Assembly: GCA_002748425.1 (NCBI GenBank)
Contig: PDSJ01000010.1
Span: 123,643-187,642 of the forward strand
Origin: a candidate division KSB3 bacterium
Lineage (GTDB): Bacteria; Moduliflexota; Moduliflexia; Moduliflexales; Moduliflexaceae
DNA: 64,000 nucleotides
Direction of reading: 5' to 3'
The notes under the pieces are model-generated. The model was not told the DNA's origin, ran no database searches, and saw only the letters and a program-made list of their open reading frames with translations. A program made the translations under genes and the position numbers. Of the stretch, positions 2,081-63,911 are shown piece after piece (within the stretch, counting starts at the first letter, position 1; each line of letters begins with the position of its first letter).

Positions 2081-2089
2081 ATATTGCAT

Positions 2090-2125
2090 AGAGGCGGCGT
2101 TAAGAGTGCTGCCTCTTTATTTTAT
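2090..2125 (+). terminator. Rho-independent terminator downstream of the first secreted-protein gene
   Basis: AGAGGCGGCG-TTAAGAG-TGCTGCCTCT forms a roughly 10-bp stem (two G-U pairs) with a 7-nt loop, followed by TTTATTTTAT. Confidence 0.55.
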
Positions 2126-2148
2126 GCTTTTTAGGGAGGAGATGCACT

Positions 2149-2682: not shown

Positions 2683-2706
2683 TGGGTACAGGACGAGGAG
2701 AAGAGA

Positions 2707-6332: not shown

Positions 6333-7468
6333 AGATCCAGGTTCACGCCCTCATATATGCGCTGTTCTGCTGATTCTGTGTTAGGGTCACAGTCCAGATG
6401 AACAAACAAGCCTTGACCGAGGAGGGCGATCGAGGGGGTGAGACGATAGTGAAATCCAGCGCCGCCGGCGTAACGCACACGGCGGCCTTCATAGGGAAGA
6501 TCGAGGTCTCTACGTTTCCGCTCGCTTTCGCCGTAATAGCGCAGATCGGCGACAAACGGAATGCTGAAACGCGGCGTCGCGTGATAAAGTAGCTTGAGTG
6601 CCCCAAACAACTCGCTACCGATGCTGTTTTCCGACTCTTCAATCATCTTTCCGCCGATGGATTCTTCGCTTGTAAACTGTGTGATGTATTGCAGAGACAG
6701 CGTCATATCCACAGTATCCAGCACTGCGATTTGAAGATCAGCTCCCGCCGATAATTTGTCTCCAATTTGAAGTGTGTCCGCATCATTTTCCGTGTCGATC
6801 CCGAAGTGTGAGTAGCCGAGATACGCGTGAATGTGTCGGCGGGGGGATTTTTTCCAGCTGTATGCTGCGTGAAGCAGAATTTCATCGCCCGGATCGTACT
6901 CGTTCAAGACTTCATCCCAGCAAAGATCGTACTGCCCGTAGTATACATAGCCGGAATACACTCCGACACTGTGAATACCACTTTCGCGTTCCAAGCCTAG
7001 TGTGGCGCCGAGGTTCAGGCCCTCGTCTAAAATATCGACACGGAACAGATCGTTTTGCTGAAAGTGATCGCGCTGCAGGATCCTTTCAGCGCTGAGGTCG
7101 TCGTTATCAAGATGTGCTTTGCCTGTTGGGAGATTGACAGCAAAATCCATCACGAATCTTATCGGATTTTGAGTCGGGAGCGTATAGCTGTAAATAGCGT
7201 TGATAAAGGTATCCGTGAATCCGGAAAGGGCAAAATCATCATCGCCTTCTCGGCTGAGTTCTGTGTGGGCGTAGGTAGTATCCAGGGTCACGGCAAGAGC
7301 ACCGCGCTCGTAGTCCCATTGTAAGGGCACTGCTGTTTGAAAGCCCGTATGTTTAGGGGAGTCGTCATCGCGAAAGCTGTCGTATTGCAGAACCATACTC
7401 ACATGGCTCTGGCAGAATGCGGAAAGGCTACCGAGTAGCAGCGCCCCGAGCAACAGGGCGCTGTACAC
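6311..7468 (-). CDS. Putative outer-membrane beta-barrel protein
   Basis: Signal peptide MYSALLLGALLLGSLSAFC. Alternating hydrophobic, Y/G-rich composition. C-terminus LCINYTF ends in an aromatic residue, typical of OMP barrels. Overlaps the start of the TPR fragment by 22 nt. Confidence 0.6.
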   Translation of the reverse strand: MYSALLLGALLLGSLSAFCQSHVSMVLQYDSFRDDDSPKHTGFQTAVPLQWDYERGALAVTLDTTYAHTELSREGDDDFALSGFTDTFINAIYSYTLPTQNPIRFVMDFAVNLPTGKAHLDNDDLSAERILQRDHFQQNDLFRVDILDEGLNLGATLGLERESGIHSVGVYSGYVYYGQYDLCWDEVLNEYDPGDEILLHAAYSWKKSPRRHIHAYLGYSHFGIDTENDADTLQIGDKLSAGADLQIAVLDTVDMTLSLQYITQFTSEESIGGKMIEESENSIGSELFGALKLLYHATPRFSIPFVADLRYYGESERKRRDLDLPYEGRRVRYAGGAGFHYRLTPSIALLGQGLFVHLDCDPNTESAEQRIYEGVNLDLCINYTF

Positions 7469-48321: not shown

Positions 48322-49866
48322 ATGAAATCAGCTTCCTCACACCATACGGTCTTAATCGTCGATGACAGTCCGGCCAATCTCAGCATGTTGACCGGTTCGC
48401 TGAAGGAATTCGGCTATAAGACGCCGATTGCCCGGAATGGTGAGACTGCTGTTGTGCGGGCACAGTTGAAGCAGCCGGATATTATTTTGCTGGATATCGT
48501 TATGCCGGGGATTGACGGCTTTGAAACCTGTCGCCGTCTGAAAATGAATGAAGCGACCAAAGCCATTCCGGTTATCTTTATGACGGCACGTACAGGAACT
48601 CAGGATAAATTGAAGGGCTTTGAAGTGGGCGGCGTGGATTATGTCACCAAACCCTTTCAGCAAGAAGAGGTCCTGGCGCGCGTCGCAACGCATTTACGAA
48701 TTCGGAAGCTGGAGCAAAGTCTGAGAGAGCAAAGCGCGAAACTCGGAGAAGCCAATCAGGAAATTCATCTGCTGAACGAACAGCTTCGGGCAGAGAACGT
48801 TCGAGTGAGCGAGTGCTTGAAAGAATCTGAATCCAAGTATCAGACCCTGGTTGAGGAGTTGAGCGACGGCTATTTTGTTCTTGAGGATGACGTGATTGTG
48901 TTTGCGAACCAGGCTTTTGCCCGCATGCATGGCTATTCACAGGAAGAAGTGCTTGGGAAGAATTTTTTTCTTTTTGTCGATCCGGAAAGCCGGGAAGACG
49001 TCACCGGGATTTACCGGAACGCCCGTCAGAACATGCCGAAGTCAGCCCTGCTGGAATATCAGCGCCTCACAAAAGACGGACAGAGCTTATCGACAGAGAT
49101 GACAGCCAAGACCACCAGTTACGAGCGGAAAATCGTCAGTATCGGACTGTGCCGTGACATCACGGAGCGCCTTGAGATGGCGCATCGCATTCGTGACGCG
49201 GAACGCATGGCCTATATCGGCCGCATCACGACATCGCTTTCTCACGAAATTCGCAATCCGCTGTCAGCGATTAAGATGAATTTACGCATTCTGCAAACAG
49301 CTCGCAAGTTTAGCGATAGTGATTGGCGGCACATTGACATTGCCGTGAATGAAGTTACGCGGCTTGAAGAAATTTTGGACGAATTGTTGGACTTTGCCAA
49401 GCCTCTTCGGCTCACCATGGGAAAGTGTGCCGTGAATGACGTATTGCGCGAATGCCTCGACCTGCTTTCTGTGAAATTCGAACAGAAATCTTTGCGTGTC
49501 GTGCAGAGTTTTGCGGCAGATATTCCAACGATCTATGCTGATCAAAAGAAGCTTGCTCAAGCCTTTTTGAATCTGTTACTGAATGCGTTTGAGGCTTCCG
49601 GGCAGAACGGACGGATCTGGGTAAAAAGTGCCTATTACACGGATCAGAATGAGCCCAGGGTGGACCTTGTTGTTGAAGATGACGGCTCAGGCCTTCCCCA
49701 GGATCGGGCACAAGACATTTTTAAGCCGTTTGTTACGACCAAGGAGGACGGGACAGGTTTGGGGCTGACCAATACACTTCGAATCCTCGATGCCCACGGT
49801 GGATGGCTCAAGGCCGCCAACCGGAAACCGCAGGGAGCGTCATTTCACGTGTATCTCCCGGTTTAA
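48322..49866 (+). CDS. Hybrid response regulator/sensor histidine kinase (N-terminal REC, coiled coil, PAS, HisKA, HATPase_c)
   Basis: REC motifs LIVDDSP...DIILLDIVMPGIDGFE. H-box SLSHEIRNPL. G-boxes DDGSGL and GTGLGL. Confidence 0.8.
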   Translation: MKSASSHHTVLIVDDSPANLSMLTGSLKEFGYKTPIARNGETAVVRAQLKQPDIILLDIVMPGIDGFETCRRLKMNEATKAIPVIFMTARTGTQDKLKGFEVGGVDYVTKPFQQEEVLARVATHLRIRKLEQSLREQSAKLGEANQEIHLLNEQLRAENVRVSECLKESESKYQTLVEELSDGYFVLEDDVIVFANQAFARMHGYSQEEVLGKNFFLFVDPESREDVTGIYRNARQNMPKSALLEYQRLTKDGQSLSTEMTAKTTSYERKIVSIGLCRDITERLEMAHRIRDAERMAYIGRITTSLSHEIRNPLSAIKMNLRILQTARKFSDSDWRHIDIAVNEVTRLEEILDELLDFAKPLRLTMGKCAVNDVLRECLDLLSVKFEQKSLRVVQSFAADIPTIYADQKKLAQAFLNLLLNAFEASGQNGRIWVKSAYYTDQNEPRVDLVVEDDGSGLPQDRAQDIFKPFVTTKEDGTGLGLTNTLRILDAHGGWLKAANRKPQGASFHVYLPV

Positions 49867-49873
49867 GCTGCTT

Positions 49874-51229
49874 ATGGCTGCGATATTAATCATTGATGAT
49901 GAATGCTCGATCCGTGAAACGCTCGAAATTTTTTTGACAAAGAAAGGGCATCAGGTGTATCAAGCGCCCAACGGCAGCGAGGGGCTTGCTCTTTTCAGTC
50001 GTTATAAACCCGACATCGTGATTCTTGACATCCGTCTCCCGGATTTGAACGGTGTGGAAGTACTTAAACGTATTCAGCAAGACCAATCTCAGGCAAAGGT
50101 GATCATGGTCACATCGTTCCAGGACATGCAGACCGCGATTCAGACGATGCAGCAGGGAGCCTACGATTACCTGAGGAAGCCTGTGGATATTGATGATATG
50201 GAACGTGTGATCGATCAGGCTTTACAGGTGCTGGAAATTGAGCAAGACGTTCATCTGCTGGAAGACATCGATGGCACGGAGAACCTGGAGGCGATCATCG
50301 GCAAAAGCGAAAAGATGCTTGAAGTGTTTAAAACGATCGGCTTGTTGAGCCAGCACCGCGCACCGGTACTCATTCAGGGAGAGACCGGAACTGGGAAAGA
50401 ACTTACAGCTCGGATGATCCACCGCAATAGCCCCTATCACAGCGAACCCTTTGTCACTTTCGATTGTTCTTCTGTTGTCGAAACCCTTCTGGAAAGCGAG
50501 CTGTTCGGTCATGAAAAAGGGGCATTTAGCGGAGCAAGCCGGACCACCAGAGGAAAAATTGAGACAGCCGGGAAAGGGACGCTTTTTCTCGACGAAGTCG
50601 GCGAACTGCCGCCGGGCCTTCAGAAGAAACTTCTGGGCTTTCTCCAACGGCGTGAGTTTATGCGGGTTGGCGGAAACCATGCCTTGCGCGCGCGTTGCCG
50701 GGTAATTACCGCCACAAATCGTGACCTGTCGATGATGGTCCAGCAGCGCAGATTTCGAGAAGACCTTTATTATCGTCTCAAGGTGGTGACCTTAGAGATC
50801 CCTCCGCTGCGCGAGCGGTCGTCGGATATCCCTTTACTGCTAACCCATTTTTTACACAAGATTAATCTGGAACTCGGCACCAGTGTCGTCAAATGGCAGG
50901 ATGGTGTGATGAACCGCTTGATGACTCATCCCTGGCCGGGAAATGTTAGAGAGTTTGAAAATACGCTCGTGGAAGCAGTCGTACGAGCGAGGGGAAAAGT
51001 CATTCTCGTAAAAGAGTTGGAGAAGATTCTGGCGCTACGCGATGGAGCGTGTGCTCATAAAGGAAGAGCCTTATCACTTTCTGCAATGGAAAAAAAGCAT
51101 ATTGAAATCGTTCTTGCCGAAGTCGGCTGGAATAAAACTGAAGCCTCCCGCCAATTGGGAATTACCGTCCCTACTCTTCGCAGTAAAATTCGAAAATACG
51201 GCATTGTACCGCCGGATTCTTCCGATTAG
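49874..51229 (+). CDS. Sigma54-dependent response regulator (NtrC family: REC, AAA+ sigma54-interaction domain, Fis-type HTH)
   Basis: ILIIDDE...ILDIRLPDLNG. GETGTGKEL Walker A. GAFSGA GAFTGA-type motif. C-terminal HTH. The ATG at 49874 follows the kinase stop. Confidence 0.9.
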   Translation: MAAILIIDDECSIRETLEIFLTKKGHQVYQAPNGSEGLALFSRYKPDIVILDIRLPDLNGVEVLKRIQQDQSQAKVIMVTSFQDMQTAIQTMQQGAYDYLRKPVDIDDMERVIDQALQVLEIEQDVHLLEDIDGTENLEAIIGKSEKMLEVFKTIGLLSQHRAPVLIQGETGTGKELTARMIHRNSPYHSEPFVTFDCSSVVETLLESELFGHEKGAFSGASRTTRGKIETAGKGTLFLDEVGELPPGLQKKLLGFLQRREFMRVGGNHALRARCRVITATNRDLSMMVQQRRFREDLYYRLKVVTLEIPPLRERSSDIPLLLTHFLHKINLELGTSVVKWQDGVMNRLMTHPWPGNVREFENTLVEAVVRARGKVILVKELEKILALRDGACAHKGRALSLSAMEKKHIEIVLAEVGWNKTEASRQLGITVPTLRSKIRKYGIVPPDSSD

Positions 51230-51861
51230 TCTTCGTCTTCATTTTCTTCGTATGAGAAAATTTCAATCGGACGAGGCAAGTCTAAGACCTTCCGCATCAC
51301 ACTCGGCGGAATATAGCTGGCCGCTACCATCAGGGTGGGGTCTACACCTTCTTGCTTCAGGTAATCATGACCAAAAGCATAGAGTTTGTCAATGTCACTG
51401 CTCTTCATAGATGACGTAATTTCCAGCAGAATATGCTCTCCGTTGCGAATTACCACGTCCACCTGCCGCCCGCCATAAAAGCCTTCTCGCACGGTCAGGC
51501 CGTCCATATCCCTCACAATCCGTCGAATCGTCTGCCGAAATGTTGATTCCGTCTGTAACCCCCAACGGGAACCCAGCCTGGCAAACTGGTCATACATACT
51601 GCTTTGAAGATTTTTTATCGAGTCCGCCAGGGACGCCACAGCCTGTTCTGTACGTTCCTGGGCCTGAGCTAACTGCTCGACCCGCTGTTCTGTGCGTTTC
51701 TGGGCCTGAGCCAACTGATGGACGGTGAGTTTCAGAGCGCTGAAATCCTGATGAGGAATCACGAAACGTTCTTCCAGCAATTCGGTAAAATGCCACATGG
51801 GGGTACGTAATTCCTGCGGAAATTCGTCCATGACTTTCGATAACAGAGTCGTCGTCACCAT
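51226..51861 (-). CDS. DUF3782-like protein (coiled-coil N-terminus, PD-(D/E)XK-like C-terminus) containing a 42-nt tandem coding repeat
   Basis: Start ATG at 51861 preceded by GAGGAGGAG. Repeat LAQAQKRTEQRVEQ / LAQAQERTEQAVAS at 51643-51716. C-terminal GEHILLEITSSMKSSD...LYAFG. Confidence 0.5.
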   Translation of the reverse strand: MVTTTLLSKVMDEFPQELRTPMWHFTELLEERFVIPHQDFSALKLTVHQLAQAQKRTEQRVEQLAQAQERTEQAVASLADSIKNLQSSMYDQFARLGSRWGLQTESTFRQTIRRIVRDMDGLTVREGFYGGRQVDVVIRNGEHILLEITSSMKSSDIDKLYAFGHDYLKQEGVDPTLMVAASYIPPSVMRKVLDLPRPIEIFSYEENEDED

Positions 51862-51998
51862 TCTCTCCTCCTCACTTGACGTATTCGTGTGTACATAATA
51901 TTTACGATAGTCTGCGGGAGACATCTTGTCAAGGGAAAACAAGAGAGAACCTTATCGTGGGATGGAGTCTGCTTTCTAGATGGCAGCGATGCCAACGA

Positions 51999-52014
51999 TG
52001 GTATAATGCTTGCA
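51999..52014 (+). promoter_or_regulatory. Sigma54 (RpoN) promoter upstream of the hybrid kinase gene
   Basis: TGGTATAATGCTTGCA: GG and GC separated by exactly 10 nt, -12 element TTGCA. 79 nt upstream of the ATG at 52093. Confidence 0.5.
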
Positions 52015-52092
52015 TAAATTTCCTTAGGATTGCCTGGCGGCTGGTCCGGTTGAGAGAGCTTTTGTGAACGAATATGATGGTATAGATGTGAT

Positions 52093-54504
52093 ATGAGTCC
52101 GACTTATTGGGAAAACAGTATTCAACGAAAAATCGGTTTCAGTCTCGTGGCGATTATTAGTGGCGTTCTGCTGATTTTCGGCCTCTACCGTTATTTTGCG
52201 ATTGAAGCCGAGTCCACACGCGAAATCGACGAGCTTGCCACCATGTCTATTGAACGCCTTGCAGAGCATTTGATCATCCCTTTATGGGATCTCAATCACG
52301 ACTTGATTGAAAAAACGCTGCTGGCTTACATGATGGATAAAAGGATTTATGCGATTGTCGTCAAAGATGAAACCGATCATATTTTTGAGGCGAAAAAACG
52401 AGATGCCGAATGGCAGATTGTCGAGACGGGAACGGCGATTACCGGGGATTTTATCGGGAGAAAAAAAGAGATTCTCAGTGAGGGTGAAAGGCTGGGATAC
52501 GTGGAAATTTATATCACTCAGCAGTTTATGATCGCTGAGCTTCGACAAGAGGTTGTCAAGACGATGCTGACAATTGTGATCATGGATCTTGCTGTCTTGA
52601 CGCTCGTCTGGTTTGTTACCCTGAGTATCACCCGCCCGGTAGCGAAAATCGTCGAGATTGCCAATGCCGTGACAGGGGGAGATTTCAGCCATCAGATCGA
52701 TATTTACCAACACGATGAAATCGGGCGGCTGGCAGATGCATTTCGGCATATGCGCGGCATGATCGGCCGCGTCTTAGAAGAGATGGACACGCTGATCAAC
52801 GCGATACAAGAGGGGCGGCTCGATGTGCGGGGAAAGGCTGAGGACTTTGCCGGGGACTGGCAGGAACTGATCATTGGAGTGAACAATGTGATCGATGCCT
52901 TTGTCGGGCCGATTAATGTCACAGCCACGTCTCTCGAACGTCTTTCAAAAGGCGAGGTTCCGGATCGAATCGACGAGAAATATAAAGGAGGGTTCAATCA
53001 GATCAGGAATAACCTGAATCAACTGATTGAAAAAATCGATACTGCTGCTGAACTCGCCAAAGCCAAAGAGCGCGCTGAAGCCGCGAATCAGGCGAAAAGT
53101 GAATTCCTTTCCAGCATGAGCCATGAACTTCGCACGCCGTTGAACGGGATCCTGGGCTACACGCAGATTCTTTTACGAGACAAGCAGCTCGCCGTGTCGC
53201 AACGCGATGCGCTAAATATTATTCATCAAAGCGGAAATCATCTGCTGACCCTTATTGAGGACATCCTGGACTTTTCAAAAGTCGAAGCCGGGAAGTTGGA
53301 GATGCTGCCGACAACATTTCATTTTCCGACCTTTCTCGAGGGAATTGTCGGCCTTGTCCGTCTTAAGGCCGAAGAAAAAAATATTCTGTTCGAGTATAAT
53401 CCCATTACTCCGATGGCAGCCGGAATTCGAGCGGATAAAAAGCGTTTACGGCAGGTGCTGATCAATCTCCTGGATAATAGTGTCAAGTTTACGCATGAAG
53501 GGAAGGTGTCATTACGAGTGACGACCCGTAATTCATCTTCAGGCAGACGTGTCTCGCCTCTGAGTCAGCCAGAAGAGCTGGTGCATGTTCGCTTTGATAT
53601 ACGCGATACGGGCGTGGGCATGACCGGGGACGAGCTGGAAAAAGTTTTCCTGCCCTTTGAGCAAGCCGGTGACAGTCGAAGCCGTGTACAGGGGACTGGT
53701 CTGGGACTCGCCGTGACCAGACGTCTCGTGGAGCTTATGGGGAGTCACATTCACGTCAGGAGTGTCCCGGGAAAAGGGAGCGCTTTTTGGTTTGAAGTCA
53801 CATTCCCCTCTGTAGCCCTTGAACGAGTCGTCCCCCAGAATTTCGAACCAAGAATTAGCGGCTACACCGGGCCGACCCTCAAGGTGCTTATTGCCGAGGA
53901 TGACGGATCGAACCGCTCGATGCTTCATAATTTCCTGGCACCGCTTGGCTTTGAGATCGTTCTGGCACACGATGGTCGGGAAGAGCTTGAGAAGGCTCGA
54001 GCATTGCAACCTGATCTCATTTTGACGGATATCGTCATGCCGGAGATCAATGGCTTTGAGACTGTAAGGCACATTCGCCAACTGCCTGAATTACAAGATG
54101 TTCCCATTGTTGCAATTTCAGCAAATGTCTTTGAACGTGATAAACAAAAAATTCTGGCAGCGGGTTGCGACGCGTTTGTGGCAAAACCTATCGAGGCTCG
54201 TCAGCTCCTGGACGTGCTGGAGAAGTGTTTGAATATTGAATGGCTTTACGAAGAAGCAAGTGACACACAGACCCGCTCAGCAGGCAGTCGCAATATGGCC
54301 CCGCCTCCAAAGCCGGAACTGGACAAATTGCATGAATTGACAATGGGGGGCGACATGGATGAAGTCCTGGCGTATGCCGCCCGCCTTGAGGGTCTGGATT
54401 GGAAATATCATCCTTTTGCCGATCGGATTCGTGCGCTTGCAAAAGATTTTGAGGATGAACAAATTCTGCAGCTTGCCGCGCACTATCGATTGAAGACCAA
54501 TTGA
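52093..54504 (+). CDS. Hybrid sensor histidine kinase/response regulator (transmembrane sensor, HAMP, HisKA, HATPase_c, REC)
   Basis: [16 protein letters not shown]-box [23 protein letters not shown] and GTGLGL. C-terminal REC VLIAEDD...[11 protein letters not shown]. Confidence 0.85.
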
Positions 54505-54595
54505 CAGGAAAGATTTTTTCCCCCTGAAAAATTCTTTCTCCTCCTGTGGAAAGTTTTTTCTCTGTCTTCCCTACTATTGTGCTGTGATCCGGATA

Positions 54596-54611
54596 TGGCA
54601 TTATGCTTGCA
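54596..54611 (+). promoter_or_regulatory. Sigma54 (RpoN) promoter upstream of the ABC-transporter/dehydrogenase operon
   Basis: TGGCATTATGCTTGCA: GG-N10-GC. Differs at only 2 positions from the promoter at 51999. 239 nt upstream of the substrate-binding-protein ATG. Confidence 0.55.
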
Positions 54612-54849
54612 AAGCATTTTTGATGGGGAGTCACACTCTTCGCAGCGTTGGTTCAGACAGAAAGGAAAAGGGAGGTGATGAGCGTTGAATCATCGGTTTT
54701 ATCGGTATTCTCCCAGAGAAACGCCGATACTATCGTGAGATGGTGAGGACAGGCTGAATCCTTCGCGTAGACCTGGTTGATCGTGTATATGGAGACAGTT
54801 TTCCAGGAAGATTGTCTCATAACTATTGTATCTTGGAGGAACACGAATA

Positions 54850-56199
54850 ATGCAAAAAAAATCACGCATTCTGCATGTATTGATGTGTACAGCAATGTTG
54901 TTACTCACTGGGTTTCAGGCTTTTGCAGACGATGTCACGATTAATATCGCGTTGGCCAATAATCCACTTTCTCAGGCGCTTGCCAAAATCGCTCAGGAGA
55001 AGTATGCTCCTGAAGGCGTCACATTGAATATTTCCGTTCTGCCAGAAAACGATTTGCGCCAAAAGATGACCACCGAAGCATCGACAGGCGGAACAACATA
55101 TGATATGTTCTATATTGGTCCGTATGAAGCTGCCAACTGGGCTCGTTACGGGTGGTTGGAAGATCTTGAACCGTACTTCGATGCGTTGTCTCCGGAAAAA
55201 CTTGAATGGTACGATCGCGATGATCTGATTCAAGGTATGGTGGGTTCGCTTTCGCTTGACGGCGCTGCCTATGCGCTGCCTTTCTATGGAGAAGCCTCGT
55301 TCATTATGTATAACAAAGAGCTGTTCGAAGCAAAAGGCTTGACGATGCCGGAACAACCGTCGTGGAATGAGATTTATGAGCTGGCAAAGAACATTCACGA
55401 CCCTGAAAACGGGATTGTCGGCATGACGATGCGCGGTGCGCCCGGCTGGGGAATGAGCGGTGCACCGTTTGTGACGATCGTTAATGCCTTTGGCGGTCGT
55501 TTTTACGACATGGACTGGAACGCCACCGTTGATACTCCTGAACAGCGGGCAGCGTGGGAAATGTACAAAAAGATTCTGCGTGAAGCAGGACAAGAGGATA
55601 TTCTCTCTTATACCTACAATGAATGTATTGCCCTGATGCAATCCGGAAACTGCGGAATTTATTATGACGCGACGTCGATCGCTCCGCCGCTGGAAGCTGA
55701 GGGATCTGCGGTAAAGGGGAAAGTCGGATATGTGATGCCGCCGCACGAAAAAATGAAAACCAATACCTCCTGGTTGTGGAACTGGGCCATGGGAATCAAT
55801 CCCAAAACTACGCCGGAGAAGAAACAAGCTGTTTTTGATTTCATGCTGTGGGCGACGTCAAAAGAGTTCATCAAAATGACGATCGAACTCGACCCAACCG
55901 GAGCCAGCACCCCTCCGGCCTCTCGCGCTTCCACGTATAAGCTGCCGGTCTATGCAAAGGCTCCCTATGCTGATGCTACGCTGAAAACACTTGAATCAAC
56001 CGATTTCACCAAACCGACCCTGGAACCGGTTCCGTATGTCGGCTTACAGTACATCGCGATTCCTGAGTTCGCTGATGCCGGCACCAAAATGACCGAATAC
56101 CTGGCGGATTATGTGGTTGATAAAATCAGCCTGGATGAGGCAATCAGTAAAACCCAGGAAGTGTTTGAACAGGTCGCAGAAGACGGCGGATACAAATAG
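54850..56199 (+). CDS. ABC transporter substrate-binding protein (carbohydrate/polyol, family 1 solute-binding)
   Basis: Signal peptide MQKKSRILHVLMCTAMLLLTGFQAFA. GGAGG Shine-Dalgarno before the ATG at 54850. About 430-aa mature domain. Confidence 0.85.
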   Translation: MQKKSRILHVLMCTAMLLLTGFQAFADDVTINIALANNPLSQALAKIAQEKYAPEGVTLNISVLPENDLRQKMTTEASTGGTTYDMFYIGPYEAANWARYGWLEDLEPYFDALSPEKLEWYDRDDLIQGMVGSLSLDGAAYALPFYGEASFIMYNKELFEAKGLTMPEQPSWNEIYELAKNIHDPENGIVGMTMRGAPGWGMSGAPFVTIVNAFGGRFYDMDWNATVDTPEQRAAWEMYKKILREAGQEDILSYTYNECIALMQSGNCGIYYDATSIAPPLEAEGSAVKGKVGYVMPPHEKMKTNTSWLWNWAMGINPKTTPEKKQAVFDFMLWATSKEFIKMTIELDPTGASTPPASRASTYKLPVYAKAPYADATLKTLESTDFTKPTLEPVPYVGLQYIAIPEFADAGTKMTEYLADYVVDKISLDEAISKTQEVFEQVAEDGGYK

Positions 56200-56218
56200 T
56201 CAATTTCTCTTCTCTGCA

Positions 56219-56262
56219 ATCCTCGACACCCTTGCGGAGCCCTCAAGCTTCGCAGGGTGTCA
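56219..56262 (+). terminator. Intra-operon hairpin (attenuator/partial terminator) between the binding-protein and permease genes
   Basis: GACACCCTTGCG...CGCAGGGTGTC stem with one bulge, followed by ATGACGTTTT. Confidence 0.4.
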
Positions 56263-56286
56263 TGACGTTTTAAACAGGAGAAGGTT

Positions 56287-57174
56287 ATGAAGAAAAAAAG
56301 TGACTGGGCATTCGTGCTTCCAGGGCTTATCTGGGTCGCTGTCGTGACGCAGATTCCATTTATCCTGACGCTGATTTTTTCTACCCTTAGATGGAATTTG
56401 GCACGTCCCGATCTTCCGGTAAAATTTTACTGGTTTAAAAATTTTTGGTATTTTCTCAGAATTCGTGATTGGTCCAGGATTCCTGAATTTTACTCCATTG
56501 TGTGGCAAACCCTGCTGATCACCGTCAGTGCCCTGGCCTTATGTACAGTTGTGGGTTTTCTCCTCTCTTTATTACTCGATCATGTGATTCCAGGGGTAAA
56601 TATCGCCAGAACCCTGATACTCGGACCATTTTTTGTGATGTCCACTGCCAGCGGCGTGATCTGGAAAACAACGATTCTGAACACGACCTTCGGCTGGTAC
56701 GGAGTCATTGCTAAAGCGCTTGGCATGACCCCGGTTGACGTGCTCAGTTACCATCCTGTTGCTGTGATTGTGGTCCTGTTTTCCTGGCGGTGGATGCCTT
56801 TTTTTGTGCTCGTGATTCTCGCCGGCTTGCAGAGTGTGCCAGGAGAGATTGTCGATAGCATGAAGGTGGACGGCGCAAATTGGTGGTATGCGACCTTTTC
56901 AGTGAAATTACCGATGATCCGCAAACATATCAGCGTTGCCATGATGTTGGGGCTTATTTTTATTGTCAAAGAATTTGGACTCATTTTAGTCACCACAGCC
57001 GGCGGACCGGGAACACGCTCTTATACGCTGCCGTATGCGGTTTTTATGCAGGTCTTCAATGCCTCAAACGTCGGTCGTGCCGGTGCATTAGCAGCCATCA
57101 CAGTCATGCTGACACTGATCGGCATCAATATTTTGTATCAATCGATTGAAAAACGGAGTGCATTGTATGATTAA
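56287..57174 (+). CDS. ABC transporter permease (MalF/UgpA-type)
   Basis: 6 transmembrane helices. EAA-like loop VDGANWWYATFSVKLP. Confidence 0.85.
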   Translation: MKKKSDWAFVLPGLIWVAVVTQIPFILTLIFSTLRWNLARPDLPVKFYWFKNFWYFLRIRDWSRIPEFYSIVWQTLLITVSALALCTVVGFLLSLLLDHVIPGVNIARTLILGPFFVMSTASGVIWKTTILNTTFGWYGVIAKALGMTPVDVLSYHPVAVIVVLFSWRWMPFFVLVILAGLQSVPGEIVDSMKVDGANWWYATFSVKLPMIRKHISVAMMLGLIFIVKEFGLILVTTAGGPGTRSYTLPYAVFMQVFNASNVGRAGALAAITVMLTLIGINILYQSIEKRSALYD

Positions 57175-57185
57175 GGGAGGATGCC

Positions 57186-58055
57186 ATGAGCGACACTCGT
57201 CCTGCTCGAGAGATTAATCGGGCCATAGAAAATAAACGCAAAATACGTACAGCGATTTTAACTGTTGTGATTTTTGCCGTAGCGATTGTGTATTTCTCTC
57301 CAGTGCTGTATATGTTCCTGTCGGCGTTTAAAACCGAGCACCAGGCAGTGAGCCCGGCAGTGTTCTTCTCCCCGACTCTTGAGACATTTCAGAAAGTATT
57401 AGGCGATGAGACGATGTTCCGTTTTTTAAGGAATTCTCTGCTGCAGGTGGTGGGCGGCACGCTTCTCTGTCTCCTGCTGGGAACTCCGGCAGCATTTGCC
57501 CTGATTTTTGGAAAATTTCGCCATGAAGGCACCAAGAATAAAATCTACCTTTGGTTTTTGACGACGATTCTTTTGCCGCCGGTTGCAGTGATTATTCCAG
57601 TCTATCTCACGTTCCAGCGCCTGAATCTTCTCGACAATCCTCTCGGGCTGCTGATTGTTTACGTGGGATTTCACGTGCCGATCGTGGTGTGGATGCTTCA
57701 TTCTTTTTTTGCAGATATTCCCCTGGAAATTCTCGAAGCCGCTGATATTGACGGATGTTCACGCTTGCAGCAGCTTATGTTGATTACTGTGCCGCTCGTG
57801 AAAACGGGAATTATCGCCGCCGGACTGCTGGTCGCGGTCTTTATCTGGAATGAGTTTTTCCTGGCCTTTAACCTCACAGGCAACGAATCTGCTACGCTGC
57901 CGGTCTATATGGCGCGTTTCCGGGAACAGCAGGGTATGTTTGTGGCCCAGCTTTCGGCAGCATCTACTGTGGTCATTCTACCGGCCGTAATTTTAGGCTG
58001 GATCAGTCAAAAATCGTTGGTCAAAGGTTTGACAGCCGGCGGCGTGAAAGGATAA
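57186..58055 (+). CDS. ABC transporter permease (MalG/UgpE-type)
   Basis: 6 transmembrane helices. EAADIDGCSRLQQLMLITVPL EAA motif. Confidence 0.85.
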   Translation: MSDTRPAREINRAIENKRKIRTAILTVVIFAVAIVYFSPVLYMFLSAFKTEHQAVSPAVFFSPTLETFQKVLGDETMFRFLRNSLLQVVGGTLLCLLLGTPAAFALIFGKFRHEGTKNKIYLWFLTTILLPPVAVIIPVYLTFQRLNLLDNPLGLLIVYVGFHVPIVVWMLHSFFADIPLEILEAADIDGCSRLQQLMLITVPLVKTGIIAAGLLVAVFIWNEFFLAFNLTGNESATLPVYMARFREQQGMFVAQLSAASTVVILPAVILGWISQKSLVKGLTAGGVKG

Positions 58056-58234
58056 GACGCTGCTGCTGACGACTTTGAAAAGGGAGGGAGCGTTTTTTCT
58101 ACGCCAGCGGATATGTTCACAGCTCATGTTGTTTACGAGACAGAGAAGTAGAGAACCGGAATAATGTATTGTGGTATTGGGAACAATTGTGCAGGACGCT
58201 GTTCCAGTACACGAAACGAAGGAGAGCTGAGCTT

Positions 58235-59320
58235 ATGCAAAGGACAATGAAAGGGGCTGTTCTGCCGGGAAACAGTACTGTTGAGTTACGAGATTTCCCG
58301 GTTCCTCAGCCGGGACATGGAGAAGTCCTTATTAAAATGAAGTCGTCCACTATCTGTGGTTCGGATATTCGTGCAATTTATCACGAACATCTTGGTCAGG
58401 GACCGGAAGGCTATCAGTCAGGCTCTGTGGCAGGCCACGAACCCTGCGGACAGGTCATTGAGGCCGGCCCGGGATGTCGACGATTCAAACAAGGTGACCG
58501 GGTCATTGTCTACCACATTTCAGGCTGTGGGGTCTGTAATGACTGCCGCCGGGGATATATGATTTCTTGTACCAGTGAGTACCGTCGAGCCTACGGCTGG
58601 CAGCGGGACGGCGGAATGGCTGAATATCTCCTGGCAGAGGAAAAGGATCTGGTGCTTTTACCGGATGAATTGACTTATTCCGACGGCGCTCAAGTCGCTT
58701 GTGGTTTTGGTACGGTCTATGAAGGATTGGAAAAAATCAGCTTAGGGGGCAGCGACGCGGTCTTGATTACCGGACTTGGCCCAGTGGGACTCGCCGCCGG
58801 GATGCTGTGCAAGGCTATGGGAGCTACGAACATTTTTGGAATCGAGGCTCTGCACGAGCGGGTGAAAATTGCCACTGATCTCAAGATTTTCGACGCGGTC
58901 TTCAAAGCCGGTCCCGACAACGTTCAACAGGTCAAAGATGCGACCGGTGGACAGGGCGTGGAAAAAGCGGTCGATTGTTCAGCTCATCCTCAGGCGCGGC
59001 TGACCTGTATCCAAGCTGCGCGTAAATGGGGTAAAATCGTGTTTATCGGTGAAGGTGGAACCGTGTCTTTTCAGCCGTCTCCCGACATTATTCACGATCA
59101 AAAAACGATTTACGGTTCCTGGGTGACGAACATCTGGCGCATGGAAGAACTGGTCGAACGCCTGGTCCGCTGGGGCATTCATCCTGAAGATCTGATCACC
59201 CATCGTTTTTCGCTTGAAAACGCTGACAAAGCCTATGCCTTGATGGCAAGCGGAAAATGTGGAAAGGTGGCGGTCTGTTTTGATGAAGAACTGGCAGAGG
59301 ATGCGTCACTCGTTGTCTAG
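58235..59320 (+). CDS. Zinc-dependent alcohol/polyol dehydrogenase (MDR superfamily)
   Basis: GHEPCG, CGSD, LITGLGPVGL Rossmann motif. AAGGAGAG Shine-Dalgarno 8 nt before the ATG at 58235. Confidence 0.8.
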   Translation: MQRTMKGAVLPGNSTVELRDFPVPQPGHGEVLIKMKSSTICGSDIRAIYHEHLGQGPEGYQSGSVAGHEPCGQVIEAGPGCRRFKQGDRVIVYHISGCGVCNDCRRGYMISCTSEYRRAYGWQRDGGMAEYLLAEEKDLVLLPDELTYSDGAQVACGFGTVYEGLEKISLGGSDAVLITGLGPVGLAAGMLCKAMGATNIFGIEALHERVKIATDLKIFDAVFKAGPDNVQQVKDATGGQGVEKAVDCSAHPQARLTCIQAARKWGKIVFIGEGGTVSFQPSPDIIHDQKTIYGSWVTNIWRMEELVERLVRWGIHPEDLITHRFSLENADKAYALMASGKCGKVAVCFDEELAEDASLVV

Positions 59321-59361
59321 CCACAAAACTACCCGACAGGAAACGTCGTGAGGCATAGTAT

Positions 59362-60840
59362 ATGAACACGTTACAGAACGATCTGCTTGCTGCGTTGAAA
59401 GACAGCCTGGCTGTGCCGGATTTTGACCGAAAGGCCCTCTCCAGCGCTATCGTCCATATTGGTGTCGGAAATTTTCATCGGGCCCACCAGGCGTATTACA
59501 TGCAGCAGCTTATGGAAAGAACCGGGGACAGGTGTTGGGGGATTTACGGGGTCGGCGTGCTCGATCAGGATAAAACGCTTTCTGATGCCTTGAACGCGCA
59601 GGACTGTCTGTATACCCTGACTGAGAAGAGCGAGACTGACGTTGCAAAAGACAGGGTGATCGGAAGCCTGCTCTCCCATAGCATGCTGTCGGAAAATCGA
59701 CGTGAAATCATCGAAAAAATCGCCCATCCCAAGACGAGCTTGCTCACCTTTACAGTGACCGAGGGTGGATATAATATCGACGATAGCAGCGGTGAATTTT
59801 TGCTGGAAACGCCGGCGATTCAGCACGATTTGAAGAATCCTTCAGAGGCCCGAACGTTCTACGGCCTGCTCTATGCAGCCCTGAAAAAGCGCCGGGCAGC
59901 AGGCATTGCTCCGCCGGATTTGCTTTCCTGCGATAATGTCGAGATGAATGGCTCGGTGTTGAAACAGGGACTCCTGGCCTATACGAAGCAGATTGATCCG
60001 GAGATGGCCGCTTGGATGGAAGAGCAAATCGCTTTTCCCAATGCGATGGTCGATAGAATCACACCGGTCACGTCAGCCGCGGACCGGGAGTACGTGAACG
60101 CACAGTATGGATATAGCGATGACTGTCCCGTGCCTTGCGAACCGTTTATCTTATGGGTGATCGAAGATACCTTCACGCAAAAACGCCCGGCCTTCGAACA
60201 ATTGGACAATGTGTTTCTCGTCTCTGATGTCCGTCCCTATGAAAAAATGAAAATGCGGCTTTTGAATGCCGGCCATGTGTTGTTTGCGCACATGGCATTG
60301 ATGGAAGGGCATGAGTTTGCGTGTGACTTTATGAACGCCGCGCCTTTTGATCCGGCGATCGAGACGATGATGCTGAAAGAGGCGTTACCCTGCGTGGGCG
60401 CGATTTCAGAGATGGATGTCATGGAATTTCTGAACAATACGATCGTTCGTTTCAAAAATCGGGCGATCAAAGATCAAACGTCACGTCTGGCGAATTTCAC
60501 GTCGGAAAGAGCGCCGAAATTTACGCTGCCCAGCATTGTGGATAATATTGTCAGAGATGGAACAGTGTCTCCTCTCTTAACTCTGGGAACGGCCGGATGG
60601 TGTGATTACCTGTCAAAAAATGACGGCATCGTTGATAAAATGGCTTCAACGCTTGTGAAAACAGCCAAAAAAGCGGTAGAAGGAGAAAGCCGCGTGTTTG
60701 TGCAGGAATTAGAGACGATCTTTCCGCAGCTTCTTCGGCAGCACGAGCCGTTTCTTGCGCTCTTCGATCAAGCGCTCTCCGCGATACGGACTCAGGGACC
60801 GGCAGCAGCGATTACACAGTTTCTTAAAGAATATTACTGA
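59362..60840 (+). CDS. Mannitol dehydrogenase family oxidoreductase (mannitol 2-dehydrogenase / fructuronate or mannonate oxidoreductase-like)
   Basis: HIGVGNFHRAHQAYY N-terminal signature. 492 aa long-chain mannitol dehydrogenase family. Confidence 0.85.
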   Translation: MNTLQNDLLAALKDSLAVPDFDRKALSSAIVHIGVGNFHRAHQAYYMQQLMERTGDRCWGIYGVGVLDQDKTLSDALNAQDCLYTLTEKSETDVAKDRVIGSLLSHSMLSENRREIIEKIAHPKTSLLTFTVTEGGYNIDDSSGEFLLETPAIQHDLKNPSEARTFYGLLYAALKKRRAAGIAPPDLLSCDNVEMNGSVLKQGLLAYTKQIDPEMAAWMEEQIAFPNAMVDRITPVTSAADREYVNAQYGYSDDCPVPCEPFILWVIEDTFTQKRPAFEQLDNVFLVSDVRPYEKMKMRLLNAGHVLFAHMALMEGHEFACDFMNAAPFDPAIETMMLKEALPCVGAISEMDVMEFLNNTIVRFKNRAIKDQTSRLANFTSERAPKFTLPSIVDNIVRDGTVSPLLTLGTAGWCDYLSKNDGIVDKMASTLVKTAKKAVEGESRVFVQELETIFPQLLRQHEPFLALFDQALSAIRTQGPAAAITQFLKEYY

Positions 60841-61007: not shown

Positions 61008-61316
61008 TCAGAGACTGAGCTGATAGAGTGCAACAGCGATAACTGCTGCAATAACCACTAGATACGCTGGAAGTTTCCAAAATGAGAGAAGCACCGCTAC
61101 CCCCCCTCCTATCAGTCCTGGAGTCAGATTGTGAGCATCAATGTGCAGGATAGCAGGAAAAATTAAGGCTGCTAATGCCGCATACGGAATTCCTTCCAGC
61201 CATTCTCTGATATAATGATCTAAACGAACTCTGGAAAACACTAACGGCAAGACTCGTGCTAATGCCGTCACAACAGACATGCCGACCAGCAAGATAAACA
61301 TTTCAGGTGATAACAT
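61008..61316 (-). CDS. azlD: Branched-chain amino acid exporter small subunit AzlD
   Basis: 102 aa, 3-4 transmembrane helices, immediately downstream of the azlC-like gene. Confidence 0.65.
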   Translation of the reverse strand: MLSPEMFILLVGMSVVTALARVLPLVFSRVRLDHYIREWLEGIPYAALAALIFPAILHIDAHNLTPGLIGGGVAVLLSFWKLPAYLVVIAAVIAVALYQLSL

Positions 61317-61317
61317 C

Positions 61318-61998
61318 TCAAGTCCTCTTCAATAGCGGGAAAATCGCAGGTGATACGACTGTCGCCACAACGAGCGCCCATCCTTCCGGCAGAACCTGTC
61401 TGACAATGACATTCAGCATGACAGCCAGTATGACAACCGGAAGATATTTTTGCTTCTTCAGTAATGCAGGAACAAGTAACGCAATAAACATGGCATAGAG
61501 AGCAATATTCATTGCGCTTTTGAGACATGCAGGAATGAGTCCCGAGGCCTTCACCCCTGCGTATGTTCCCAAACACCAAGCCCCAAATGCGCAGAGTATA
61601 AGGCCGTAGATCGCCGTTTCAGTTCGCATCTCCGCATCTTCAGATAAGCTGATAATGGCAAATGTCTCATCAGTTAATCCGAGAAAACACATCGCCTTTT
61701 TCGGAACAGAAATATTTTCCAGGCAAGGGAGCAGTGAAAAGCCCATGATAAAATGTCGGGAATTGATAACAAGGGTCGCAAGCACGATTTGTACAATCGG
61801 TATGCCGTTCCCAAGCATGCCGATTGCCATAAACTGGCTTGCACCGGCAAAGACACTCAGCGACATCAGCACTGGAAAAAGAGGGGGAAAGTGATAGCTT
61901 TCTGCGACAACACCGAATGAAATCGCGATGGGGACATATCCAATCATAACAGGAAGAGACGCTTTGACGCCTTTTAAAAATACTCTTTTCTTGTCCAT
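61318..61998 (-). CDS. azlC: AzlC family branched-chain amino acid exporter permease
   Basis: 226 aa with SLPVMIGYVPIAISFGV AzlC-type N-terminus. Confidence 0.75.
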   Translation of the reverse strand: MDKKRVFLKGVKASLPVMIGYVPIAISFGVVAESYHFPPLFPVLMSLSVFAGASQFMAIGMLGNGIPIVQIVLATLVINSRHFIMGFSLLPCLENISVPKKAMCFLGLTDETFAIISLSEDAEMRTETAIYGLILCAFGAWCLGTYAGVKASGLIPACLKSAMNIALYAMFIALLVPALLKKQKYLPVVILAVMLNVIVRQVLPEGWALVVATVVSPAIFPLLKRT

Positions 61999-62077
61999 AG
62001 CTTTTGTTTAAAGATGTTCCTGCATTCGATCGTGTTGAAATGCCATGAGCTACGCAGCAGTTTAAACCCTTCTCTCC

Positions 62078-62689
62078 TTATCGATATATTGATCTTGCGA
62101 CGTTAAACGCTAAGGCTATCAGGACAGCACCAATAATTCGTTTGAAGCAGACCAACCTGCCGTTCAACCAGACGAAGACCCTGTTTGACGAAAAGACAAA
62201 AGCCACAATGGCAAACCATAGCAAGGATTCCAGACAAAGCAGCAGCAGGATGACAATTGTATCCGAGAGCGGAGCATGCGGCTTGAGGACTTGAGGCAGC
62301 ACCGAACTGAAATACACCATCGCTTTGGGATTCAGGAGGTTCGTGAAAAAACCTGTTGCAAAGGCATTGCCTGTCTCGGTTTGAACTGCCTGGGTCGGAC
62401 TTTCACCCTGTGACAGTAAACTTTTGACACCAAGCCAGCCCAGATACAGGGCCCCCGCATACGCAAGAAGTCTTGACAGGACGGGGAGGGCCGACAGCAC
62501 AAGCGACAACCCAAAGGCGCAAATCATGACATAGATGCCGATCGCCGTGGCAATCCCTGATGCAGCCAGTACTCCAGCTTTTCTGCCGTTCAGCACTGAA
62601 AGCCTGGTCGTCACGGCAAAGTCAGGCCCCGGCGAAATCAGTGCGACTGCATGAACAGACAGCACGATACGTAAAGAACTTATGTCCAT
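62078..62689 (-). CDS. LysE/RhtB family amino acid exporter
   Basis: 203 aa, 6 transmembrane helices, N-terminal LISPGPDFAVTT motif. Confidence 0.8.
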   Translation of the reverse strand: MDISSLRIVLSVHAVALISPGPDFAVTTRLSVLNGRKAGVLAASGIATAIGIYVMICAFGLSLVLSALPVLSRLLAYAGALYLGWLGVKSLLSQGESPTQAVQTETGNAFATGFFTNLLNPKAMVYFSSVLPQVLKPHAPLSDTIVILLLLCLESLLWFAIVAFVFSSNRVFVWLNGRLVCFKRIIGAVLIALAFNVARSIYR

Positions 62690-62975
62690 AACTATTTCCT
62701 AACGTTGTTTCAGGCACAATGAGATGAAGCAGGTGCAGGTGACACTTCTGCATTCAAGACATGTTCAGCAGCTTTTTCAGCGTGAGTATCTCCTTGTGTC
62801 AAGAAACATATTGAGATCTTTTACAAAAGATGATTTATCCTTTCCATCAGTTGCCAAATTATGGTCGCTTGTTCGCGAGACGCATAGCGATTATTTTTCC
62901 AATATGGCTACTGTGCGTTTGGGCTGTTCTTGTAAAAACTTGACAGGACAGCCTGTCTGAGGGAAAAGGATCGCT

Positions 62976-63911
62976 ATGATACTTTGCGTAGGACTTACTC
63001 CCGTATATCAAAGAACCTTGACGATCGAAGGATTTCAGATCGATCGCGTCAACCGAGTGAAGCCGGGGATTCTCGAAAGTAGTGCCGGCAAAGGCATCAA
63101 TGTTGCCAGAACGATCAAAACGTTGGGGCATGATGCGCTGGTAACGGGTTTTCTCGGTGGCGATACGGGAAAATACGTTCAGAGCGCGCTTGCGGAAGAA
63201 GGGCTGAGAGCCGATTTCGTTCACGTCACGAATGCCACCAGGATTTGTACAACGATCATCGACCCTCAGCAGCAGACATATACCGAAATCGTCGAAGAAG
63301 GCCGTCCTGTTTCAGACAGTGAAATCGAGCAGATCTGTCAGCTATACGCTCAGCATCTTGCCGACTGCCGATTGGTCGCGATTGCCGGCTCGGCACCACA
63401 GCGGGTTCCACATGATATTTACGCTGATTTTATCCGTGCAGCCCACACCCTTCATAAACCGGTTCTTGTGGATACGCAGAAGAAGCTGCTGCTTCACAGC
63501 CTCGATGCCAGGCCTTTTCTCGTTAAAATTAATCGCGAAGAGCTTGGAGCGGCCTTTCAACAGCAGATCGATTCGACGGAAACGCTGTTTCACCTGATCG
63601 ACAGGCTGCACGAGCGAGGCGTTGAATGCGTCCTGATCAGTCATGGCAAGGACGCGTTGCTGCTTTCATATGCCGGCAAGCGTTGGCGCATCTTTCCGCC
63701 TTCAATTCAAGCTGTCAACCCGATCGGATCGGGTGATGCTGTGCTGGGCGGGCTGGCCGTCGCGCTGTCCGAGGGCCAAGCCCCTGTTGAGGCCGCACGT
63801 CTCGGCACGGCCTGCGGCGCGGCAAATGCCCTCACACTCCTTCCCGGCTCCATCCGTCTTGAGGATGTGGCGCGCTTTAAAGGCGACGTTCACGCTGAGC
63901 TCTGCTCCTGA
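62976..63911 (+). CDS. PfkB-family carbohydrate kinase (1-phosphofructokinase / tagatose-6-phosphate kinase-like)
   Basis: AGKGINVAR N-terminal motif. C-terminal NPIGSGDAVLGGL ATP-binding motif. Confidence 0.8.
   Translation: MILCVGLTPVYQRTLTIEGFQIDRVNRVKPGILESSAGKGINVARTIKTLGHDALVTGFLGGDTGKYVQSALAEEGLRADFVHVTNATRICTTIIDPQQQTYTEIVEEGRPVSDSEIEQICQLYAQHLADCRLVAIAGSAPQRVPHDIYADFIRAAHTLHKPVLVDTQKKLLLHSLDARPFLVKINREELGAAFQQQIDSTETLFHLIDRLHERGVECVLISHGKDALLLSYAGKRWRIFPPSIQAVNPIGSGDAVLGGLAVALSEGQAPVEAARLGTACGAANALTLLPGSIRLEDVARFKGDVHAELCS

Follow-up and report, generated by a model that had tools for sequence, protein, structure and literature searches.

In a 64-kb stretch of DNA (hereafter, the window) from a metagenome-assembled genome (MAG) of an uncultured, sugar-fermenting bacterium of candidate division KSB3 (Moduliflexota, Vecturithrix-like), an operon for polyol-type uptake and catabolism is likely controlled by a sigma-54 promoter and an upstream enhancer, a reading to which we assign a probability of roughly 70% on the basis of comparative sequence analysis. 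The operon encodes a substrate-binding protein (SBP), two permeases of an ABC transporter, a Zn-dependent dehydrogenase, and a mannitol-dehydrogenase-family enzyme. Its promoter (hereafter, P2) and a pair of tandem upstream activating sequences (UAS) hold their position and helical phase in 13 loci, and they co-occur with a three-gene block that encodes a hybrid kinase (HK1), a response regulator of the NtrC/AtoC type, and a second hybrid kinase (HK2). P2, the UAS, and the predicted link of both to the activator are strongly supported by these comparisons. The design is that of a standard enhancer-binding-protein system, a well-supported but ordinary switch that changes no general picture. It differs from known systems in its two kinases, in having a CUT1-type ABC importer as the target, in its new enhancer sequence, and in a separate, enhancer-less sigma-54-type promoter (hereafter, P1) upstream of HK2.

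The genes of the window were called by Pfam domain searches of its open reading frames (ORFs), and all earlier gene calls were upheld. A genome scan with the SBP as query retrieved at least 80 loci (designated by L numbers), mostly from Spirochaetota, Desulfobacterota, and Bacillota, whose SBP-permease operons are 54–88% identical to the window version. Among these loci, HK1, the activator, and HK2 were found beside the operon only in KSB3. With HK2 orthologues as queries, the KSB3 set grew to 15 HK2 loci, plus two with the SBP operon only; scanning metagenomes with the HK2 alignment returned a single true orthologue, and the further loci came from look-ups of exact proteins. P2-type promoters were compared across 15 promoters from 13 KSB3 loci and P1 across the 15 HK2 loci, and 1.31 Mb from 66+ non-KSB3 loci with the same transporter operon, in which the SBP operon is 54–86% identical, served as the comparison for the enhancer. 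In the ancestral gene order, an FGGY sugar kinase gene on the minus strand comes first, then the gene for a secreted double SBP of 680 aa, those for HK1, the activator, and HK2, and finally those for the SBP, the two permeases, and the dehydrogenases. The window departs from this layout in having prmC instead of the double SBP gene ahead of HK1, and a DUF3782 gene between the activator and P1.

The operon promoter and its tandem upstream sites

The original prediction had been built on two 16-mers with GG-N10-GC spacing, and both were read on the plus strand, P1 (TGGTATAATGCTTGCA) at 51999–52014 and P2 (TGGCATTATGCTTGCA) at 54596–54611. They are the only matches in the window to a strict sigma-54 pattern (TGGYAY-N5-TTGCW) and rank as the top two among all of its GG-N10-GC sites by a simple consensus score. 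The higher-scoring of the two, P2, has one mismatch to the TGGCAC-N5-TTGCW consensus. Both are intergenic and on the coding strand; 78 nt separate the −12 end of P1 from the ATG of HK2 (52093), and 238 nt separate that of P2 from the ATG of the SBP gene (54850).

Shuffles of the window gave an expectation of 0.32 matches to the strict pattern, and two or more were reached in 4/100 shuffles, so from the window taken by itself the two 16-mers could be chance matches without promoter function. Against this, both sites are conserved orthologously in 12–13 independent loci amid flanks that cannot be aligned. Moreover, the strict matches in KSB3 loci (~300 kb) all precede HK2, an SBP gene, or the FGGY kinase gene. 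This cross-locus conservation places both sites well beyond chance by sequence criteria, and the data effectively refute an explanation that we consider extremely improbable. The close similarity of the two 16-mers, which had been given weight, holds in this genome and fails as a general feature. The 14/16 identity is confined to the window and its closest relatives (L090, L091), and the pair in L010 differs at five positions; on this distribution the near-identity is specific to a sub-clade and not a design feature.

All 15 P2-type promoters keep TGGCAY and TTGCA, while the 5-nt spacer between them drifts freely. In an alignment of six orthologous intergenic regions between HK2 and the SBP gene, the only conserved islands are a tandem repeat, TGGCA, and TTGCA, and the rest cannot be aligned. 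In the 66 loci outside KSB3, no sigma-54 motif was detected ahead of the SBP gene. Judging from this pattern, P2 very likely functions as the sigma-54 promoter of the SBP-permease-dehydrogenase operon.

The tandem repeat is the putative enhancer (54505–54541, plus strand). It comprises two overlapping 19-nt sites set 18 nt apart, CAGGAAAGATTTTTTCCCC at 54505–54523 and CCTGAAAAATTCTTTCTCC at 54523–54541; its first base directly follows the HK2 stop codon, it lies 91 nt upstream of the −24 TGG of P2, and a weak third copy is found at 54546–54564. Each site is an A/T-centred palindrome with G/C flanks (consensus roughly CCTGAAAAATTTTTCCCC). The sites score 22–28 bits against a position weight matrix (PWM); nothing else in the window exceeds 20 bits or forms a tandem pair. 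Across the 15 P2-type promoters the copies are 17–19 nt apart, and the promoters form two classes, nine in which the first site is 88–91 nt from the −24 TGG and six in which it is 99–101 nt away. The classes are one helical turn apart, as expected if a bound activator must face the polymerase.

The UAS and a sigma-54 promoter also precede a second ABC transporter (L082, L092) and the divergent FGGY sugar kinase gene (L010, L091, L094), and the UAS is within 88–195 nt of the promoter in all 18 promoters that carry it. Together, the three classes of target would look like the regulon of one regulator. No tandem UAS was found in the 1.31 Mb of non-KSB3 loci carrying the same transporter. A natural deletion control is provided by one KSB3 locus (L034), in which the FGGY gene directly abuts the SBP operon, and the regulator block, the UAS, and the sigma-54 promoter are all absent.

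The UAS is most likely bound by the neighboring NtrC-type regulator, as its distribution suggests. Nine regulator orthologues, 63–86% identical overall, have an invariant recognition helix in the helix-turn-helix (HTH) domain; this matches the conservation of the UAS and so supports the link between enhancer and regulator. The tandem element could alternatively be an architectural one, of the bending or IHF-like kind, or the site of another activator, with HK1, the NtrC-type regulator, and HK2 controlling other genes. Its AAAAATTTTT-like core is indeed intrinsically bent DNA, and in one locus (L056) the UAS and promoter are present though no regulators adjoin, so the regulators must act in trans there. 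Both readings fit poorly, however, with the conserved G/C flanks (CCTGAAA...TTTCC), the fixed 17–19 nt spacing of the copies, the restriction of the element to KSB3 genomes and, within these, to sites ahead of sigma-54 promoters, its loss together with the regulator block in L034, and the invariant HTH of the regulator, and we judge this alternative highly unlikely. The part of the prediction that had the regulator driving the catabolic operon through sigma-54 is supported by a conserved promoter and a conserved enhancer that co-occur with the regulator block, the binding itself being predicted.

The promoter ahead of HK2

A sigma-54 motif (TGG...TTGCA) is found shortly upstream of HK2 in 12 of the 15 HK2 loci, and the predicted sigma-54-type site ahead of this gene therefore stands. 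In seven loci the site reads TGGTATAATGYTTGCA, with an intact TATAAT. The other five (TGGTATGATGCTTGCA, TGGTATAACGTTTGCA, TGGCATACATTTTGCA, TGGCACAACGCTTGCA, and TGGCACGGCGTTTGCA) keep TGG and TTGCA, and their TATAAT is degraded (TATGAT, TATAAC, CATACA, CACAAC, and CACGGC). This indicates that the −24/−12 elements are the common denominator and TATAAT a feature of a sub-clade; on sequence grounds, the assignment of P1 to the sigma-54 promoter class is supported.

The −24/−12 elements of P1 overlap an extended −10 element (TGGTATAAT, 51999–52007), and P1 may thus be mainly, or also, a housekeeping sigma-70 promoter that provides constitutive low-level HK2, the sigma-54 match being secondary or competing. 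P1 is the top sigma-70-like site in the 13-kb region (ATGGCA-16-TATAAT with an upstream TG), and TGGTATAAT is a perfect extended −10. All 16 positions, including the nominal spacer, are near-invariant in the seven loci, whose HK2 proteins are 64–79% identical, whereas P2 has four different spacers in the same loci. A sensor is also needed before induction, so its constitutive expression makes sense. Yet P1 shows no conserved −35 element, a pure sigma-70 promoter would have no use for the TTGCA that is conserved downstream of TATAAT, and the five orthologous sites above retain TGG...TTGCA while TATAAT decays. We hold this option as tentative, somewhat improbable but deserving serious consideration. 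P1 may be composite, with a sigma-70 extended −10 embedded in the sigma-54 −24/−12 spacer and two holoenzymes competing for the same 16 bp.

The original prediction had the regulator also driving its own second kinase, and for this the sequence offers no cis-element. PWM scans detected no tandem UAS within −400 to +100 of any of the 12 P1 sites. The NtrC-type palindromes anticipated 80–150 nt upstream of both promoters thus exist for P2 (tandem, 88–101 nt in 15/15) and not for P1 (0/12). A separate enhancer for P1 was also sought and rejected; sharing of 9-mers among the upstream regions yielded only the 3′ coding end of ntrC and no other common motif. Regulator-driven HK2 expression would have to act over a long range, from the UAS 2.5 kb downstream.

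Such looping would place HK2 under positive feedback by the same regulator. NtrC sites can work over kilobases and from downstream, P1 is of the sigma-54 type in most loci, and wherever both ends of HK2 are visible, P1 precedes the gene and the UAS directly follows it, even in disrupted upstream contexts (L090, L093). However, the regulator appears to be short-range, given that all 18 UAS promoters hold the UAS at 88–195 nt and the 15 SBP-type ones do so in strict helical phase; two loci (L008, L095) have the UAS and P2 but no P1; and neither a UAS nor a shared motif lies near P1. We consider feedback from the downstream UAS unlikely. Most likely, HK2 has basal expression or a control of its own and is not subject to simple positive feedback, because P1 has no copy of the enhancer and coincides with a perfect extended −10 in the sub-clade.

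Further observations concern the surroundings of P1. In L090 (7760–7912) and L092 (7770–7924), P1 is immediately preceded by degenerate remnants of the 3′, HTH-coding part of the activator gene. The remnant in L090 follows a 7.5-kb insertion of an Opp-type ABC transporter, indicating that P1 moved together with that fragment. A short block, AAATTTCC(GG)TAAAAA, is located at the predicted start region of P1 (52015–52035 in the window), is conserved in L082, L090, L091, and L092, and loosely resembles an enhancer half-site. In L008, which is without P1, the intergenic region between the activator and HK2 (6260–6490) is filled with repeated REP-like palindromic units (GCCCTGAAAGGGC / CCTGGGGTTGTCACCCCAGG). 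In L099, a 1067-aa HAMP-PAS sigma-54 activator (101–3304, minus strand) is divergent from HK2, and the canonical TGGCACGGCGTTTGCA is in the shared intergenic region, an arrangement that may point to control of P1 by another activator in certain lineages.

The activator, the two kinases and the proposed mechanism

The response regulator (49874–51229, plus strand; 451 aa) has a REC-AAA+-HTH_8 architecture, with Pfam matches to Response_reg (E-value 5.6e-30), Sigma54_activat (1.4e-64), AAA_lid_14, and HTH_8 (1.7e-11), and its AAA+ sigma-54 interaction domain is intact. As had been claimed, it is the only sigma-54 activator in the window, where no other ORF bears a GAF[TS]GA motif. Its NCBIfam scores are below the cut-offs for AtoC (431/714), NtrC (392/559), and ZraR (339/760), and by these scores the regulator is a family member but none of these named orthologues.

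HK1 (48322–49866, plus strand; 514 aa) is a cytoplasmic hybrid kinase with REC, PAS, HisKA, and HATPase_c domains according to Pfam. Its stop codon is separated from the start of the regulator gene by a 7-nt gap, and orthologues of 513–532 aa are directly upstream of the regulator in nine loci. The best NCBIfam match is AtoS, with 234 bits relative to an equivalog cut-off of 646 bits. HK1 is likely the cognate kinase of the regulator.

HK2 (52093–54504, plus strand; locus tag CSB45_02620) is a membrane hybrid kinase in which a transmembrane (TM) segment, a periplasmic domain of ~125 aa, and a second TM segment are followed by Pfam HAMP, HAMP_2, HisKA, HATPase_c, and REC domains and a conserved tail of 90 aa. 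No Pfam match was obtained for the periplasmic domain (residues ~35–160). It was modeled by AlphaFold2 (pLDDT 73) as a long N-terminal helix and then a five-stranded antiparallel sheet between the TM helices, and the model weakly suggests a Cache/PDC-like fold. The best NCBIfam models for HK2 are TorS, BarA, and LuxQ, all below their cut-offs. An unorthodox His-Asp-His kinase of the BarA/ArcB/TorS kind was considered for HK2 and rejected, the tail being without an Hpt domain or a conserved His.

In the mechanism we propose, the Cache-like domain of HK2 would sense the substrate, either directly or via a binding protein. The N-terminal receiver of HK1 would take input from HK2 in the membrane, and cytoplasmic HK1 would phosphorylate the adjacent regulator. 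The phosphorylated regulator would oligomerise on the tandem UAS, loop to the sigma-54 holoenzyme at P2, and open the promoter. The genes for the SBP, the two permeases, the Zn-dehydrogenase, and the mannitol-dehydrogenase-family enzyme would thereby be switched on, with the ATPase presumably supplied from elsewhere in the genome.

A candidate binding-protein co-sensor is encoded in most relatives, where a secreted double binding protein of ~680 aa lies just ahead of HK1 (L010, 2023–4077; L008, ~911–2905; L091, 2448–4487; L094; L095; L097; L098). Its N-terminal half is SBP_bac_3-like, and its SBP_bac_1 half is 36% identical to the transport SBP. The position and composition of this protein would fit such a role. 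It is missing ahead of HK1 in the window and in L082; KSB3 copies occur on other contigs, none assignable to this MAG, and homologues with ~51% identity are also found in Gammaproteobacteria.

Several points weigh against this account of the operon and its control. Besides the L056 locus, which keeps the enhancer and promoter away from the regulator genes, the proposed binding of the UAS by this particular regulator is drawn only from their co-localisation. The GAFTGA loop reads GAFSGA in the window, and orthologues have GSFTGA (four) or GAFTGA, all of them conservative variants. No RpoN-box ORF was detected in the window or in the fetched related loci, and the KSB3 genome paper makes no mention of sigma factors; from the intact enhancer-binding proteins in every related genome, we infer that rpoN is present in this one. 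The Foldseek matches of the HK2 sensor domain are all Cache/PDC sensors (including CitA and DctB) but weak (best E-value 2.8e-3; TM-score 0.4–0.5). The tail of HK2 gave no Pfam match to Hpt at E-values up to 10, and its last 100 residues contain no invariant His across 16 orthologues, so that no Hpt step is visible and the previously claimed phosphorelay is conjectural. The order HK2, HK1 receiver, HK1 kinase, activator is proposed from domain logic and gene adjacency. Finally, "polyol" is the safe description of the substrate, suggested by source annotations and by enzyme families whose matches are below curated cut-offs.

The arrangement resembles several known systems. One of them is rhizobial DctB/DctD-dctA, in which a membrane kinase with a periplasmic PDC/Cache sensor and a regulator of the NtrC family (REC-AAA+-HTH) act through tandem upstream sites ~100 nt from a sigma-54 promoter to switch on the transporter for the sensed substrate, the corresponding sensor fold and binding here being predicted; structures of the DctB sensor are among the weak fold matches of the HK2 domain. 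Unlike DctB/DctD, the KSB3 system has two kinases (one a cytoplasmic REC-PAS protein, the other a HAMP-HAMP hybrid whose receiver is C-terminal), its target is a CUT1-type ABC importer with dehydrogenases and not a secondary carrier, its UAS differs in sequence, and its sensor kinase gene has its own sigma-54-type promoter. AtoS/AtoC of E. coli gave the best curated-family scores for HK1 and the regulator, and AtoC recognizes two 20-bp repeats that lie ahead of a sigma-54 promoter. However, the scores here are far below the cut-offs, HK1 has an N-terminal receiver and no membrane segments, and the target genes are different.

On the transporter side, the SmoEFGK/MtlEFGK systems (Rhodobacter, Pseudomonas) share the CUT1-type SBP with two MalFG-type permeases, the linked polyol dehydrogenase genes, and the "sorbitol/mannitol" names given in the source annotations. 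They differ in the K (ATPase) gene, which is absent from the operon and the window here, and in their regulation, which relies on sigma-70 promoters and DeoR- or AraC-type factors in place of a sigma-54 activator. LuxQ/LuxP-LuxU-LuxO and TorS/TorT are alike in their kinases, LuxQ and TorS being among the best models for HK2, and in the secreted 680-aa binding protein that the ancestral layout encodes with the kinases; LuxO is, as here, an NtrC-type sigma-54 activator. In contrast to these systems, no Hpt protein or domain was found, the gene for a sensor-type binding protein is absent from the window, and the scores are below cut-offs.

In the AauS/AauR-AatJQMP system of Pseudomonas, an NtrC-type regulator and RpoN are required for an ABC importer of the sensed nutrient (PMC7962211). 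It likewise has an NtrC-type activator, with tandem upstream sites, controlling a binding-protein-dependent ABC importer, and differs in that amino acids are sensed, the ATPase is encoded in the operon, and a single classical kinase is used. A survey tied sigma-54 control of carbohydrate use mainly to PTS genes (PMC12316311), and the present system would extend such control from PTS systems to a binding-protein-dependent polyol importer. Members of the KSB3 phylum are known to cause bulking in wastewater treatment and to carry very large inventories of two-component systems (PMC4312070). For this uncultured phylum, the analysis offers a concrete predicted regulon, with a motif for the binding sites, a rule for their phasing, and targets of three classes. 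New insight could come only from the enhancer-less, TATAAT-containing P1 and from an element in the leader of the operon that is shared across phyla.

Transporter, leader and neighboring genes

The SBP gene (54850–56199, plus strand; Pfam SBP_bac_1; 449 aa) was assigned a start at ATG 54850 instead of TTG 54826. Homologues of the SBP are 73–92% identical, and the JGI name is [quoted passage not shown]. The two permease genes (56287–57174 and 57186–58055, plus strand; Pfam BPD_transp_1 in both) are syntenic in about 75 loci. The Zn-dependent medium-chain dehydrogenase (58235–59320, plus strand; 361 aa; Pfam ADH_N and ADH_zinc_N; gene call from L001) is a putative polyol dehydrogenase for which all NCBIfam matches are below cut-offs. 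It is followed by the long-chain oxidoreductase of the mannitol dehydrogenase family (59362–60840, plus strand; 492 aa; Pfam Mannitol_dh and Mannitol_dh_C), which comes closest to the NCBIfam families of fructuronate reductase and D-arabinitol 4-dehydrogenase but scores below the cut-off for each. The dehydrogenase complement varies between relatives.

The claim that the transporter operon contains no ATPase gene was confirmed, and by Walker-A/LSGGQ motifs no ABC ATPase ORF was detected in the whole window. A MalK-type ORF is near the SBP gene in only ~6 of roughly 80 SBP loci, and the absence of the ATPase gene appears typical, the rule for this transporter group.

The 5′ leader of the operon (54623–54849, plus strand) contains GGAGGTG at 54671–54677 and a hairpin (54832–54858 region upstream of the ribosome-binding site (RBS): GAGACAGTTTTCCAGGAAGATTGTCTC at 54791–54817). 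GGAGGTG is a perfect complement of the 3′ end of 16S rRNA, lies 104–179 nt ahead of the SBP start codon, and occurs in only three copies in the whole window. It is present exactly in 14/14 KSB3 leaders, in L034 (which has no sigma-54 promoter), and in 9/9 Desulfobacterota leaders (L002–L007, L009, L016, L054), and it is absent from ~55 Spirochaetota and Bacillota loci. The hairpin was found just ahead of the RBS in roughly 17/22 leaders, not in all. The heptamer and usually the hairpin thus travel with the operon across KSB3 and Desulfobacterota, whether or not the promoter is of the sigma-54 type.

Given its conservation, the leader (230 nt between P2 and the SBP gene) might be an undescribed cis-regulatory RNA of the polyol ABC operon, which we regard as quite unlikely. 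Several candidates for its function were tried and rejected. A leader peptide after GGAGGTG is not indicated, the mini-ORFs being variable in length and sequence or absent (L093, L095). No Rfam family matched at E-values up to 5 except a spurious lncRNA. For eight Desulfobacterota leaders, the RNAalifold consensus was weak (−14.6 kcal/mol) and its covariation term unfavourable, and no common partner for GGAGGTG was found in single-sequence folds.

In seven Desulfobacterota operons (L004–L007, L009, L016, L054), a strict TGGYAY-N5-TTGCW match was found on the minus strand ~500–570 nt past the second permease gene, which suggests a sigma-54-driven convergent gene there.

The DUF3782 gene (51226–51861, minus strand; Pfam DUF3782 / PD-(D/E)XK_10; 211 aa) is convergent with the regulator gene, whose stop codon it overlaps, and its position within the regulatory block was as noted before. 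In tblastn searches, none of the other 14 HK2 loci gave a homologue, and the window gave no further copy. We conclude from its absence in those loci that the gene is not part of the system and, on comparative grounds, is an insertion unique to this genome. Other loci have 36–240 nt, or different insertions, between ntrC and P1. The gene holds an internal 42-nt coiled-coil repeat at 51643–51723, and neither flanking repeats nor a mobile-element signature was found around the insertion.

Downstream of the operon (61008–63911), genes for AzlD, AzlC, and a LysE-type exporter (minus strand) are followed by a PfkB-family kinase gene and a TetR gene. The PfkB-family hexose/1-phosphofructokinase gene (62976–63911) scores above the NCBIfam cut-off for the 1-PFK subfamily and is without a sigma-54 motif or enhancer; its product could complete polyol-to-fructose catabolism.

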